This document shows positions 18,001 to 27,000 of a DNA stretch of 64,000 bases, piece after piece (the first letter of the stretch is position 1; each line of letters starts with the position of its first letter). The stretch spans positions 640,001 through 704,000 of the forward strand of contig CAWEPK010000008.1 in the NCBI GenBank assembly GCA_963810935.1, in the 5' to 3' direction. Source of the DNA: an uncultured delta proteobacterium (GTDB lineage Bacteria > Desulfobacterota > Syntrophorhabdia > Syntrophorhabdales > WCHB1-27). Position numbers: made by a program.

Positions 18001-21000
18001 GGGCGCTAGGGGTGCCATACGCCAACGTCGACCAGATCGCCAAGCTCATACCTACAACGCTCGATATCAGCATAGACCAGGCACTCTCCGAAGAGCCCAG
18101 GCTCAGGGAAATGTGCGAGAAGGACGAGACCATCCGCGAGCTTATAGAAAACGCGCAGGTCCTGGAAGGGCTGGCGCGCCACGCATCGACGCACGCGGCC
18201 GGGATCGTAATATCGAAGAAACCCCTCATGGAACACGTGCCCCTCTATCGCGGCCAGAAGGGTGAGACGGTTACGCAATACTCGATGAAGACCATCGAGA
18301 AGATAGGGCTGGTCAAGTTCGACCTCCTCGGCCTCAAGACCCTGACGATCATCGACAACGTCATAAAGATGCTGAAGGCGCAAGGGGTCGATCTCGATAT
18401 CTCGCGCCTCCCCCTGGACGATAAAGAAACGTACCGCCTCCTGGCATCCGGCAACGCGTCCGGTGTCTTCCAGCTTGAAAGCAGGGGCATGAGAGAGCTG
18501 CTTACGCGGCTCAAGCCGTCGCGCTTCGAGGACATCATCGCCCTTGTAGCCCTCTACCGTCCCGGGCCGCTCGGCAGCGGCATGATCGACGATTTCATAA
18601 AGAGGAAGCACAACCCCTCGCTCGTCAGGTTCGAGACGCCGATGCTGAAAGAGGCGCTGGCGGAGACGTACGGCGTCATCGTTTACCAGGAGCAGATCAT
18701 GAAGATCGCCACTTCTCTGGCGAACTTCACGAACAGCGAGGCCGACCAGCTAAGGAAAGCGATAAGCAAGAAGATACCGGAGCAGCTTGAATCATACAAG
18801 GAACAGTTCAAGCAGGGGTGCACAGCAAACGACGTCAAGGCGGAAGTGGCGACGAAGATCTACGACGTCATTCTCAGGTTCGGCCAGTACGGCTTCAACA
18901 AATCGCACAGTGCCGCTTACGCGCTCGTGGCCTACCAGACTGCCTACCTCAAGACCCATCACTACCTGCCGTTCATGGCCGCGATCCTGACGAACGAGGT
19001 GAGCGACACCGACAGCCTGATCCGCTACATCACGGAATGCAGGGAGGGCGGCGTCGTCATCCTGCCGCCGGACGTAAACGAGAGCGCGAAAGCATTCACT
19101 ATAGTGGACGATAAAATCAGGTACGGCCTGCTCGGCATAAAAGGCGTGGGGGAGGCCGCACTCGACAGCATACTGGGGGCCAGAGAGGAGTGCGGGGGCT
19201 TTTCGTCATTCACCCATTTTTGCAGCCTGGTCGATTCGAGGAAGGTCAACAAGAAGGTCGTGGAGTGCCTTATAAAGGCAGGCGCCTTCGACTGCATGGG
19301 CCTGAAGCGCTCCCAGTTGTTCGCTCTCGTACAGGACAAGTGGGACAGGCTTTCCAAGAAGAACGGCAAGAACAGCCTCCAGATGGACATCTTCGGCACC
19401 AACGCGCTCACGCGCCTGGAAGACGAGGTGCCGCAGACAGATGAGCTCGACCACGCAGATATACTCAAAGGTGAAAAGGAGGCGCTCGGCTTCTTCTTCA
19501 GCCAGCATCCACTCTCTGCATACAGCCATATCATCTCGCATATAACACGCTTCGACACGGCCAGCATCAAAGAGACGGATGCGGTCGATGATGTCACGAT
19601 AGTCGGCATAGTCAACGGATGCAAAGAGATCACGACGAAAAGGGGCGACCGCATGGCCAACATATCCCTCGAAGATACGAAAGGGATTATAGAGACCATC
19701 GTCTTCCCCGACCTTTATTCGAAACAACTCCTCCTGATCAAAAGCGACAAGCCGATTGTTGTAACGGGCACTCTCGAGAGGACCGAGGACGGCACGAGCC
19801 GCATAAGGGCGAAAAATATCACTCCGTTGGAGGATGTACAGAGAGACTGGATAAGATAGTGCGCATCAGGATCGATTGCACTCTATTTAAGAAGGACTAT
19901 CTGAGGACATTGAGGGACATCCTGGCCTCGATCAAGGGTGATTCACAGGTCCTCCTGGAATTCCTCCAGAACGGCGAGAGGAAGGTATTCGATGTCCCCG
20001 GCATGCGCGTTGACGCGTCCAAGGCTGTGACCGTCCAGCGCCATTTCGGCAGGGGACTCGATGTTGAGGTGGCTTAACGGATGAGGCGATATTATCTCGA
20101 TTTCGAGAAGAAGCTGGAACCGCTGGAACGCAGGATAGAAGAGGTAAGGAAGTTCCACGATGCCAAGGACCCGCACTACGCAAGGGATCTAGACCAGCTT
20201 GAGAAGCGGATACTGAAGGCGGAGCAGGAGATATACAGCAACCTGAGCAATTGGCAGCGGTGCCAGCTTTCCCGCCATCTGAACCGGCCCCACATGCTCG
20301 ACTACATAGGCAAACTGTTCACGGATTTCGTAGAGCTCCACGGAGACAGGAGATTTAGGGACGACCCGGCTGTCGTGGCAGGGTTTGCCCGCTTTAACGG
20401 CACGGCCGTAGCTGTGGTTGGACACCAGAAAGGCAACAACGTCGGCGAGATGGCGGAGCGCAATTTCGGTATGGCCAACCCTGAAGGTTACCGGAAATCG
20501 ATGCGGATCATGGAGCTTGCCGAACGATGGCGCAAGCCGCTTCTGACCTTCATCGACACACCCGGCGCCTTCCCCGGCGTAGGGGCCGAGGAACGGGGCC
20601 AGGCCGAAACCATCGCCGCGAGCATCGAGTTTATGTTCTCCCTCTCCGTCCCTGTGATATCGGTTGTGACTGGGGAAGGCGGCAGCGGCGGGGCGCTTGC
20701 GATCGGCGTGGGCAACAGGATCCTCATGATGGAGAACGCGATTTATGCGGTCATCTCACCCGAAGGCTGCGCCGCGATCCTCTGGAGAGACGGCTCCAAG
20801 GGCCCGCTTGCGGCGGACGTGCTCAAGCCGACCGCCCAGGACTTATTTTCACTAGGGTAATAGATGAAATAATACCGGAGCCTTTCGGGGGCGCTCACAG
20901 GGACTGGGAAGCGACTTTCCAGACTGCGGCCGCCGTCATCGAAAGACACCTTCGGGAGCTGCTCGCAATCCCCGGCGAAGAACTCAGGAAACAGCGCTAC

Positions 21001-24000: not shown

Positions 24001-27000
24001 TCGTGAAGTCCGCCCTTGCTATGGCGGCAACGCAGTCGTTGGGGCAGCCGGACGCCTTGATCTTGAACTTATAGGGCCAGCGGGGGCGGTGTATCTCGTC
24101 CTGGTAGGTCATGGTGAGGTCGTAGATAAGGTCTAAGGTGTCGATATTGGCATACTCGCACCTGGCCTGGCCTATGCAGCCAGCGGGGGTGCGAAGCGCG
24201 GAGCCGGAGCCGCCCAGGTCGAAGCCTGCTTCGGTCAGCTCGTCGAAGCAGGGCTGGAGGTTCTCCGTGGTGGTGCCCAGGAGGATGACGTCCCCTGTGG
24301 AGCCGTGGAAGTTGGTCATGCCGCTTCCGTACTTCTCCCATATGTCGCAGATCTTCCGGAGGGCGTCCGTTGTGTAGAACCAGCCTGCGGGCTGGTTGAT
24401 CCGCATGGTGTGGAAGGCAGCGGCGAATGGGAAGTCATCGGGCGCATCGCAGTACCTGCCTATTACGCCTCCCCCGTAGCCTGTAACCCCCACTATGCCT
24501 CCATGCTTCCAGTGGGTTACCCGGTCATGATAGGAGCGCTCCTGGATCTTAAGGAGATCTTTTGCCGCGGGGTTCTTCTTTGCAGCCCGCTTCATCTCCT
24601 TAACAAAGCTCGGCCATGGTCCCTTCTCGAGGTCGTCGAGCAGGGGGGTGTCGTCGGTCATGGGGTCCTCCTGGGTAGTCGCACGATGAAGCAGCCGTTA
24701 CGGCCTATCTTGTAATTTGTATCATATCGGCTGATTTTGCACAATGCACATGAGAGGCCGGCGGTGTTACATCTATCGCAAAGAACGCGACTCGTTTCGC
24801 ATCGTCTTCAGGAAGCGCAGGAGGGCGATAAAAATGGCGAGTACCAAGGGGCCCAGAACAAACCCCACGAAACCGAAGAACCCGACACCGCCGAGGATGC
24901 CGAACAGGACGACCACGAAGGGTATTTTTGCCCGGCCCCTTGCGAGCCACGGCCGCAAAAGCTGCTCGATGCCGTTTGTGCCGACAACAGATACGGCGAG
25001 GACTATGATCGCGGCCAGTATTCGGCCGGCGATGAAAAGATAGGCGACGACCCCGAGCCAGACGATGGCGGACCCGACCAGCGGGATCAGCGCCGAAAAG
25101 CCGACGGCCAGCGCCACGAGAACGGGGGACGGCACTTTGGCCAGACTGAAAGTTACGAAGGCGAAGAGTGCGTGCCCGACCGGGCTGAATATGGTGCCGT
25201 AAATCGTCGATATAACGACGTCTCTGACAAGCTCCCTGAGCTTCTCCCTGCTTGCGGCCGGAAAAGGTATCTGCTCCAATCCCGCCCTGACAAACTCCGG
25301 GCCTTTCTGGGGAAGAAAAAAGAGAACGATCAGGGTGAGTATGAGGTCTACGATCGAGGTAAGAAAGATGACTGCGTGGCCGGGTATTTGACCCGCGAGC
25401 TTCTGGCCGCCCTTGATAATGTAATCGACGGCCGCCTCCCCTACCCGGCTGTCGCTCAGGCCGAGCATCGAAAGAACGGGATTTACGAACCGGCTCAAGA
25501 AACCCCGGGACGAGCTGCCGGCAAGCAGGTTCTCCTTCTGAAGATAAGCCGTAGCGCTCGCTACCTCATTGACCAGAAGGTACAGGAAGTAGGAAACCGG
25601 GCCGAGGACCAGAAGCAGGATGATTACCAGATTGATGAGCGAGGCGAGGCTTTCATTTCTTACGAGCCTGAGGACCAGAGAATAAAGCGGGTACGAGACA
25701 ATGGCGAGGATGATCGCCCACAGGATCGCGGCAAGGTAGGGCCTGATGATCTCGTAGGAGAGATAGCCGAAGAAAAGCAGGAAAATGCCCAGAACGACGA
25801 ACTGGGACAATGTTTCGTGCGTGTTCTTCCCCGCCATGCCTGCCTTTCCCGCCCGGTTGGAACGCGGCGTAAAAGAAGCCCCGTCCTAGGTCGATAATAG
25901 GCACGCCCATCCTCGCAATCAAGCCCTGCAAATTTTAGCTAGGCTGTCCCCATGCCTTTCTTCCGGCGGGCATGAGAAAGAGGACGGGGATCGAGACCAG
26001 GGGCATGAGGCCGAAGGCGATAAAGGCAATCATGAAGCCGAGGGAGGGGCCGGAGCTAAGGTGGAGGATAGCTGTAACGATTGAGATGGCGAGGGCGCCG
26101 CCGATATTCCTGAACATATTCCGGAGTCCGACTATCGTGCCCACCTTCTCAGGCATCAGCTCGATACATGCGTTATTCGAAGCCGGAAACAGCATACCCC
26201 CTCCGAGGCCGTTTATGGCCATGATAATCGACATTGTGCCTATCACCCCCAGCCCCCTTCCCCCGCTCGACGGAAAGAACCCCGGCGCAAGAAGGATTAT
26301 CGTGAGGCCGGTTATGACGCAGCCTATCACCATTGGCCACCGGTAGCCGACCCTTTTCAGAAGAAAGCTCGTTACTGCGGCCGTGGCGGCCATCGCCAGG
26401 GACCGGGGCGTGAGGATCATGCCGCTCATCAATGTAGAGAGCTTATGGACCGATACCGCGTAGAACGGGACGAACGAAAAAAAGCCCATCGTCGTCATTC
26501 CGACGATGAGGTTCGACACGTTCGCCGCAGCGAAGGCCTTCGACTCCAGCAGGGTTGCGTCGATGATCGGCTTTTCCGTGCGTTTCTCCTGTCGAAGGAA
26601 GAGCACCGCGAGCAGGACACTGGCGAAAAAGAGAAGCACCGAAAACAGTACGATGAGGAGCGTAAAGCTCTCGGCAATGAAATTGAGCCCCAGCATAAGC
26701 GCCAGCAGCGACCCGCTCATGAGCGCCACCCCGGCAAGGTCGATCCGGGGCCGCGTAACGGTCACGGATTCTTTGAGCAGCACCATGGTCGAAATAATCA
26801 ATAGAACACCGATAGGGACATTGATATAGAAAATATAGCGCCAGGAATACTGGCTGACGATCCAGCCCCCCAGGTTCGGCCCGACGACGGCCCCTATGCC
26901 GAAGATGCTTGCAAAAAGGCCGATTGCCGCTTCGCGGCCCTCCGGGAAGTGATCGCTCACGATGCCCGAGGCGGTAGGAAGAAAGCAAGCCCCTCCTATG

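Follow-up and report, generated by a model that had tools for sequence, protein, structure and literature searches.

The dispersed dsrAB copies of the genome under study (G000) are very probably older than its split from the congeneric genome G001, and have since been overwritten within each genome by gene conversion. The genes of sulfate reduction, once one supercluster (sat, apr, qmo, dsrA-B-D-N-C-MK-(E)-T-MKJOP), would have become dispersed in this genus of uncultured anaerobic bacteria. Synteny shows that the ancestor common to G000 and G001 already had dsrAB, the genes of sulfite reductase, at both the dsrC-MK site and the dsrT/accA site. Later, non-allelic recombination would have repeatedly overwritten the copies inside each genome in tracts of approximately 0.4-1.4 kb, which would spare one patch, extend into flanking non-coding DNA and bring a repeat element (E) and a spare dsrB end from locus to locus. 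RecA-type conversion is the presumed chemistry (recA is present in G000), and the last 3′ tract may have moved from a second contig (C10) to the contig analysed here (C8). The copies may be kept owing to their different upstream regions, with identical subunits avoiding mismatched alpha2beta2 enzymes.

We analysed a 64,000-nt stretch of C8 (the window; Table 1). A blastn search of the whole genome found a sole other copy of its dsrAB unit, at C10:306033-308374 (2342 nt, 98.76% identity, 28 mismatches, 1 gap), and the genes flanking both loci are each single-copy in the bin. This bears out the first-pass annotation, which had described two dsrAB pairs at unrelated loci with unique flanks, an alignment of the same length and mismatch count, and dsrB copies 97.7% alike but only about 88% identical to those of a congener. 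Both genes, which are adjacent, score well above the cut-offs of the NCBIfam equivalog profiles (DsrA, TIGR02064, 561 bits versus 393; DsrB, TIGR02066, 507 versus 342). The dsrB copies agree at 1040 of 1065 nt (97.65%), and identity continues for 84 nt beyond the dsrB stop, across the repeat element. Frameshifts in the C10 copies of dsrB and dsrC are probably assembly errors. The dsrT-like protein matches Pfam RsbRD_N above the cut-off and has homologues before dsrM in other genera, not at this locus; judged by the DsrT definition in the part of PMC6018805 used for the assignment, it is a likely DsrT, as its provisional name had implied.

Table 1 Features of the dsrAB locus, in window positions
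Feature	Position	Strand	Description
dnaE-accA, downstream flank	16644..21039	+	Syntenic in G001 and G002; unrelated gene after accA in G003
dsrT-like gene (RsbRD_N domain)	21096..21620	-	Directly precedes dsrM in other genera
Tail of E and displaced second dsrB end (last 18 codons and stop)	21632..21692	-	6 synonymous differences from live end
IS200-family element	21693..22340	-	Directly after TAAT of E, between dsrB and dsrT-like gene
Unit common to C8 and C10:306033-308374	22340..24680	-	19 nt upstream, dsrAB and 84 nt downstream
Short spacer and repeat element E (~72 nt, double hairpin, TAAT end)	22341..22425	-	Same variant at C10:308291-308374
dsrB	22426..23490	-	354 aa, counted from ATG common to relatives; intact here
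3′ homogenised tract	22426..22826	-	0 differences in 399 nt
Unhomogenised dsrB patch	22827..23260	-	25 differences in 439 nt; both alleles present in short-read contigs
5′ homogenised tract	23261..24661	-	3 differences in 1398 nt between copies
dsrA	23501..24661	-	386 aa; same protein sequence as on C10, genes differing at 3 nt
AI-2E transporter gene	24773..25837	-	Upstream flank unique to this dsrAB copy

The congeners G001, G002 and G003 place these copies in context. As had been reported, G001 holds three near-identical dsrAB copies (99.78-99.91% alike over dsrAB), and the dsrB copies of G000 are 88.4% and 88.3% identical to those at the same two loci of G001. At the dsrC locus both flanks match between the two genomes; at the dsrT locus the downstream flank matches, as does sequence 20-34 kb upstream, whereas the immediate upstream 20-29 kb differ. 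The synteny of both loci points to a duplication older than the species split. The earlier claim of syntenic flanks in congeners thus holds for G001 but not for G002, whose single dsrAB copy has crossed flanks (C10-type upstream, C8-type downstream). In the tree, the dsrAB copies group by genome. Trees constrained to unite same-locus copies are rejected: they score 756-784 log-likelihood units worse (p-AU 2e-34 and 2e-51). Synonymous sites follow the same pattern, with a dS of 0.618-0.635 at the same locus between genomes compared with 0.044 within G000 and 0.004-0.006 within G001. Between G000 and G001, dsrAB (85.5-88.4% identity) diverged like its neighbouring genes (72-85%), same-locus copies differing by 13% between the species. 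Non-coding sequence is shared within G001 too: two copies carry the same 88 nt upstream of dsrA, and at the dsrT locus as well as the dsrC locus dsrB is followed by a long E variant. The third G001 copy is without E and still 99.8-99.9% identical to the other two; hence E marks conversion but is not required for it. The dsrA copies of G018 are a different case from the homogenised copies: there is a tandem partial duplicate (95.6%), and a third copy has 75%. The conversion tests were run without these copies, and the final tree omits one of them.

The differences between the two G000 copies are strongly clustered, with 25 of the 28 confined to 439 of 2236 nt, an arrangement reached in 0 of 20000 permutations on two measures and in 18 of 20000 on a third. 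This is the identity mosaic that conversion tracts leave, although the exact tract limits are uncertain, as polishing may blend copies. The proposal of concerted evolution by gene conversion is backed by synteny, tree, dS, mosaic and a shared non-coding insert. In this insert, each dsrB copy is followed by the same E variant and then by a displaced duplicate of its final ~60 nt. Only three of the 561 pairs formed by 34 full E copies match exactly; two of these lie within tandem arrays, and the third is made up of the E copies behind the two dsrB genes. The shared E and spare dsrB end are a physical footprint of conversion extending into non-coding DNA, which is new here.

E occurs genome-wide in G000, holds no ORF and folds only slightly better than shuffled versions of it (z -2.6 and -1.9). 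It is often flanked by gene-end duplicates, which are 13-105 nt long and begin approximately 3 nt after TAAT; fragments are stacked at the dsrT locus of G001. The IS200 family has seven copies in G000, all after TAAT and four of them inside E-type repeats. No Rfam family matched E near a gathering score, and the E pattern had 0 matches in viral contigs. A plain target-site duplication is an unlikely origin, as the live ends are foreign and synonymously changed and the spacer is non-matching.

E could itself be the driver: E-tagged alleles would invade untagged alleles or paralogues, anchored by upstream homology, and the 3′ end of E would join within the resident gene end, driving conversion of the dsrB 3′ end. 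We regard this as doubtful, although several observations favour it. A copy of the upstream sequence lies at most 3 nt after E at 28 of 123 sites in G000, compared with 20 of 1498 in a mismatched-flank control; in other metagenomes the count is 11 of 64 sites, against 6 of 1498 in the control. Over nine dsr gene-end pairs of known frame (one trimmed before a 1-nt gap), 30 synonymous and 4 non-synonymous codon differences separate the live end from the displaced one, but the pairs are non-independent and stop-to-stop changes make up 4 of the 30 synonymous ones. Pooling every E site had given 24 synonymous and 16 non-synonymous codon differences; this tally was discarded because automatic frame assignment erred in frame or strand at several sites, for example the two dsrD ends. 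In G001 dsrA, the displaced end equals the other two copies, and 7 of 10 codons in the live end are foreign; G012 and G017 have spacer and E type in common and differ in their joints; and the tract adjoining E is the one with no differences. On the other side, the dsrD-side copy of G001 is homogenised though it lacks E, and searches for a partner enzyme found none: G000 has no reverse transcriptase, 1 of 30 RAYT-like loci of the order has a partial E nearby and the RAYT-like gene of G000 has none beside it, and small GIY-YIG genes show no tight link to E. Ordinary recombination, using the displaced end as a second homology, accounts equally well for a spread from C10 to C8. In its broadest and similarly improbable form, this explanation would make E a protein-less homing element of Syntrophorhabdales that travels with the gene end of a related allele, is joined by its own 3′ end to a point within the resident gene end and replaces that end without breaking the gene; jumps between dsrAB paralogues would then drive part of the homogenisation, and the dispersed copies would place a single enzyme sequence under distinct promoters (sulfate-linked, sigma-54-type and a third).

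Two known systems resemble E. As described in part of PMC7282813, WHO elements at yeast FBA1 swap a gene 3′ end for that of the donor, shift the old end downstream and, by repeating this, stack fragments as at the G001 dsrT locus. At E, likewise, the gene end appears to have been replaced by a foreign allele and the old end displaced, judging by the G001 dsrA end and the codon tally. Unlike WHO elements, E is only ~72 nt long, sits at many protein and tRNA genes, encodes no protein and no allele-specific endonuclease, and no nuclease was found for it: no linked reverse transcriptase, RAYT or GIY-YIG gene was detected. With REP/BIME sequences and TnpA-REP, as portrayed in portions of PMC3333891 and bioRxiv 10.1101/279083, it shares a short palindromic intergenic form, many copies, tandem arrays, use as an IS target and a resident Y1 transposase. 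However, no RAYT (TnpA-REP) gene flanked by E was found, and E has flanking gene-end duplicates, whereas 'duplication' occurs 0 times in PMC3333891.

Returning to conversion between old copies, we regard it as very unlikely that a collapsed repeat, strain mixing or polishing merely makes the copies look alike or one locus look double. Short-read contigs came from four runs of one study, possibly including the source sample; such contigs lose variants, and their depth is not copy number. The bin has 7.06% contamination, the accA and IS200 frameshifts are not in the short-read contigs, and the crossed flanks of G002 could be a misjoin through a repeat. The short-read contigs contain 11 of the 28 differences among the matches listed, and 16 extra variant sites absent from both assembled copies, four of which lie beside three shared ones at 22827-22852, where the short-read allele shows seven differences and C10 shows three. 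The number 28 is accordingly not firm: polishing may have mixed the copies, or strains may differ. However, at a distance of 13% hardly any 31-letter words would be common to the copies, and the short-read contigs nevertheless form one path at about double depth (6.9-13.6 for dsrAB contigs, 3.1-7.1 for flank contigs). One contig stops at 24655, beside the first difference at 24656. The joint between E and the displaced end is present in a short-read contig, the flanking genes are single-copy and two of the G001 copies are on the same contig, separated by 237 kb. An artefact may alter the number of differences, not the conclusion. Least probable, and again very unlikely, are independent recent duplications in each lineage, which would yield the same tree, or purifying selection alone, which would suit the low between-genome dN/dS of dsrAB (~0.08), given that the same two sites would need duplication in both lineages, that silent sites and 84 non-coding nt are also identical, and that a mosaic is unexpected from a single duplication.

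The dispersal of the remaining cluster differs in part from what was first proposed. Not every piece is headed by its own dsrAB: a dsrD-N-C block without dsrAB lies beside tRNA-Ser in G001 and G002 and stands alone in G003. The reported lack of sat and aprAB applies to the G000 assembly but not to G001 and G003, which have sat and aprA-qmo; the third dsrAB of G001 sits behind these genes, an arrangement as in other genera. The absence of dsrD and dsrN from G000 is probably an assembly gap, because the adjoining tRNA-Ser(GCT), the neighbour of dsrD-N-C in congeners, is also absent from the assembly. The candidate dsrD fits in size and position behind dsrB; Pfam DsrD gave no match up to E 1, and PDB 1ucr only a weak one (E 0.39). 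G003 has sat, aprA-qmo, dsrD-N-C and dsrMK with no assembled dsrAB; reading this as a sign of repeat boundaries is unsupported, as its contigs do not stop at the expected junctions.

Multicopy dsrAB, put forward as a general property, applies to this genus but not to the order: more than one dsrA copy occurs in 3 of 43 dsrA-bearing genomes (96 genomes searched). Concerted dsrAB evolution was seen in G000 and G001 only, in a genus of four genomes, compared with at least five species in the smallest cases in Table 1 of PMC6053082, as far as that source was available. As a caveat to conversion, several copies at shared loci occur in only these two genomes, both indel-rich assemblies. Concerted evolution is already known for amoCAB/haoAB in Nitrosomonadales, tuf and psbA/D (PMC6053082, in part), which share with dsrAB dispersed copies, syntenic loci, grouping by genome, synonymous-site identity and subunits of stable complexes; here, unlike there, dsrAB alone is repeated, with different partner genes per copy, the depth is one genus (dS about 0.6) and tracts are recorded by a repeat element. 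The main text of PMC6053082 has 0 mentions of dsr or sulfite. Near-identical dsrAB duplicates are likewise known from Chlorobaculum tepidum, which in the passages seen of PMC2702494 and bioRxiv 10.1101/172254 has two dsr clusters with different partner genes and one frameshifted dsrB. Its dsrAB is of the oxidative type, unlike here, its frameshift is termed authentic, whereas that on C10 is probably an error, and those passages contain no cross-species conversion test. Divergent second copies, as in Moorella and in reductive plus oxidative pairs (parts of PMC10504309 and bioRxiv 10.1101/2023.06.27.546762), also lie in separate regions with different dsr neighbours, but have different phylogenetic histories, whereas the copies here are homogenised. 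No study of gene conversion between copies of dsrAB came up in our literature search, which lay mostly outside subscription papers and supplements; Table S1 of PMC12948486, from what was seen of that paper, flags multiple DsrAB copies and could list similar cases.

The use of dsrAB as a marker rests on its being usually single-copy (PMC4351914, in part). Read or qPCR surveys would overestimate a lineage that has two or three homogenised copies. Its dsrAB can collapse or vanish from assemblies, and conversion tracts make dsrB a mosaic, disturbing fine-scale trees. So far limited to one small genus, the effect brings the key enzyme of sulfate respiration into the small group of prokaryotic complexes known for concerted evolution, and here the events have left an unusual physical record.

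The G000 genome carries a single dsrAB copy besides the one in the window, at the dsrC locus on C10, and the two align over 2342 nt with 28 mismatches and one gap (97.65% identity for dsrB considered alone), which bears out the numbers of the first-pass annotation. The neighbours on both sides of the C8 and C10 copies are single-copy genes in the bin. The assembly is indel-rich, with frameshifts in the C10 dsrB and the C10 dsrC, and the frameshifts at window 20854 (accA) and 22086 (IS200 gene) are assembly errors, given that short-read contigs lack them. These contigs, aligned to window 19000-27000, come from four runs of one study, and the source sample may be among them. 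Depths in the four runs were 9.8-12.1, 10.4-13.6, 6.9-8.3 and 10.5-11.7 for long contigs covering dsrAB, and 4.1-5.4, 5.1-7.1, 3.1-4.8 and 4.1-7.1 for contigs of the flanks. One contig stops at 24655, adjoining the first C8/C10 difference at 24656, and at least 11 of the 28 differences are recovered among the matches listed. The near-identity is real, because copies 13% apart could not collapse into such contigs. Among the matches listed, the contigs also show at least 16 variant sites that both assembled copies lack; a second allele at 22827-22852 has seven changes against three in C10. These variants may reflect copies blended by polishing or strain differences. No gap occurs in the aligned contigs across the position equivalent to the C10 frameshift.

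Features at and around the dsrAB loci, in G000 unless another genome is named; gene names in the 29795-36443 row are presumed from translations
Feature	Position	Strand	Remark
dsrA	window 23501-24661	-	above NCBIfam cut-off
dsrB	window 22426-23490	-	above NCBIfam cut-off
hairpin repeat E behind dsrB	window 22341-22412		
IS200	window 21693-22340		splits dsrB from dsrT; may be polar
genes upstream of dsrAB	window 29795-36443		4-hydroxybutyryl-CoA dehydratase-like gene, two IclR-type regulators, 2-oxoacid oxidoreductase subunits
E with duplicated gene end	window 53692-53775 (C8:693692-693775)		52-nt duplicate of tRNA-Arg-like 3' end; same joint in G015, another genus (L198)
second dsrAB	C10:306033-308374		
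sigma-54-like motif	C10:305800-305930		before dsrA at dsrC locus; upstream palindromes
E tandem array	C10:27184-27572		five copies in G015 and in G010, of the same order
E-type hairpins	C10:315330-315500; C12:103850-104020		within longer palindromic ends resembling IS200/IS605 termini; 178-nt version recurs in G002 at 96-98%
single dsrAB of G002	G002:C35:72912-75171 (L034)		
tandem dsr genes of G018	G018:C16:26574-30602 (L035, L217)		dsrA, truncated dsrB fused into second dsrA, dsrB; duplicates 95.6% alike; third copy elsewhere, 75% identical

The congener G001 has three dsrAB copies. The first shares its flanks on both sides with the C10 locus (moaE, DUF134 and nifX upstream, dsrC-MK-E-MKJOP downstream). 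The second resembles the window copy in having dsrT-accA-dnaE after it, and the upstream match resumes 20-34 kb away; the third is preceded by sat and aprA-qmo, with a dsrD-like gene behind it. Between G000 and G001, same-locus dsrAB identity is 85.5-88.4% and that of neighbour genes 72-85%; dS, at 0.618 and 0.635 between the genomes, falls to 0.044 for the G000 copies and to 0.004-0.006 for those of G001. The copies cluster by genome with full support (13 rows; one copy of G018, a genome of the same order, left out), and locus-wise clades, when forced, are rejected (p-AU 2e-34 and 2e-51). Selection alone is ruled out by identity at silent sites, and independent duplication in each lineage by the loci common to both genomes.

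The 28 differences are unevenly spread: the leading 1398 nt have 3 of them, the 439 nt that follow have 25 and the closing 399 nt have none. In a permutation test over 347 polymorphic sites three measures of clustering were reached by 0, 0 and 18 of 20000 permutations. Within the 439-nt patch C8 and C10 differ at 25 sites, about as many as separate each from the congener G002 (20 and 29). The mosaic reads as conversion tracts around a patch that would either have been spared overwriting lately or have been imported from a relative.

The stretch shared by C8 and C10 extends 84 nt beyond the dsrB stop, through the repeat E, a ~72-nt double hairpin ending in TAAT that was absent from the first-pass annotation. 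A second copy of the final ~60 nt of dsrB, the displaced end, stands behind E at each locus, separated from E by IS200 in the window. Only 3 of 561 pairs among 34 complete E copies are identical, two inside tandem arrays and the third formed by the E copies that follow dsrB on C8 and C10. The displaced dsrB ends differ from one another at 6 of 54 nt. Compared with the G002 dsrT-side end, the window displaced end shows 3 differences and the live end 5; the displaced end is the closer of the two, a suggestive result given the small numbers. The spacer ahead of E in the window resembles the C10 flank, which suggests that the latest transfer probably ran from C10 to C8. The IS-E-dsrB path is present in short-read contigs, as is a joint where E meets the displaced end. 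The dsrT and dsrC loci of G001 each have a long variant of E following dsrB, the dsrT locus with a stack of two displaced ends, and two G001 copies have 88 identical nt upstream of dsrA in common.

A profile search of G000 gave 136 E matches, 47 of them full-length, and among 96 genomes of the order 37 match an exact pattern for E. Sequence just upstream of E recurs directly behind it at 28 of 123 G000 sites, some in arrays (control 20/1498), at 21 of the 58 sites of four relatives, and, in a set of 64 sites drawn from 80 metagenome loci, at 11 (control 6/1498). Gene ends duplicated in this way include those of a tRNA-Arg-like gene, dsrA, dsrB, dsrD and a gene that we take from its sequence to be infA. 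The joint lies ~3 nt past TAAT; in 24 of 30 cases, and in 7 of 10 of a second set, the middle base of the resident triplet at that point is G. Some filled and empty E pairs between G000 and G002 show a short stretch replaced, not duplicated. All seven near-identical IS200 copies in G000 are inserted after TAAT, four of them in E-type repeats. Live and displaced ends of nine dsr pairs, which are not independent, differ by 30 synonymous and 4 non-synonymous codon changes, with 4 changes stop-to-stop; in G001 the displaced dsrA end has the sequence of the other two copies, and 7 of 10 codons in the live end are foreign. Together, the foreign live ends and the codon tally argue that E comes with the gene end of a related allele and displaces the resident end, as is described for WHO elements at yeast FBA1 (PMC7282813). 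No enzyme for E was found: a search of G000 gave no reverse transcriptase, a partial E lies near 1 of 30 RAYT-like loci of the order, and small GIY-YIG genes show no tight link to E.

In other genera the cluster forms a single row, apr-qmo followed by dsrA-B-D-N-C-MK-(E)-T-MKJOP (G004 and G073, with sat nearby in G004), and in the genus of G000 it is in at least four pieces. The proposal that each piece is headed by its own dsrAB fails, since a dsrD-N-C piece stands without it in the congeners G001, G002 and G003. Neither sat, aprA, dsrD nor a close dsrN was found in the G000 assembly, so the reported lack of a sat/aprAB row holds there and not in G001. The dsrD-N-C block is probably unassembled in G000, because the tRNA-Ser(GCT) that flanks it in G001 and G002 is also missing. 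ARAGORN made three tRNA-SeC calls in the whole of G000 and none for tRNA-Ser(GCT), Ile(GAT) or Ala(TGC), and the missing tRNAs point to unassembled regions. The dsrD-like gene is named from size, position and a weak structure match, and dsrT from an RsbRD_N match and a published definition (PMC6018805). G003 has an empty site after accA and no assembled dsrAB. The single G002 dsrAB combines a C10-type upstream with a window-type downstream flank, and neither inner flank was found in that bin (66% complete), which points to a deletion between copies or to a misjoin; the flanks are not simply syntenic in G002. Across the order dsrA occurs in 43 of 96 genomes, with more than one copy only in G000, G001 and G018. 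The two near-identical loci in G000 are real, and the trait is narrow in range: dsrAB is multicopy in the genus of G000, not in the order at large.

The dsrAB marker is reviewed as usually single-copy (PMC4351914), with divergent copies known from Moorella and as reductive plus oxidative pairs (PMC10504309, bioRxiv 10.1101/2023.06.27.546762); Chlorobaculum tepidum has two nearly identical copies in two clusters (PMC2702494, bioRxiv 10.1101/172254). A survey whose main text does not name dsr establishes concerted evolution for the dispersed metabolic genes amo/hao, tuf and psbA/D (PMC6053082). The literature searched contained no report of conversion among dsrAB copies, and supplementary tables may list such genomes.

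Most probably, non-allelic homologous recombination overwrites dsrAB copies tract by tract; recA is present in G000. The displaced gene end would supply a second patch of homology, so that a tract could carry E across. Upstream regions of the copies differ, the third G001 copy lying behind apr-qmo. In G000, G001 and G002 alike, the dsrC-locus copy is preceded by a conserved GG-N10-GC motif resembling a sigma-54 promoter, with 3 mismatches to the consensus; a gene ~14 kb behind the dsrB of that locus is, judging by its sequence, a sigma-54-type activator. A like motif lies upstream of dsrM in a stand-alone dsrMK of G003 (L137), adjoining a sigma-54-type activator gene. The copies may be retained because a single enzyme sequence can then be expressed under several controls while its subunits stay interchangeable, a plausible benefit to the organism.
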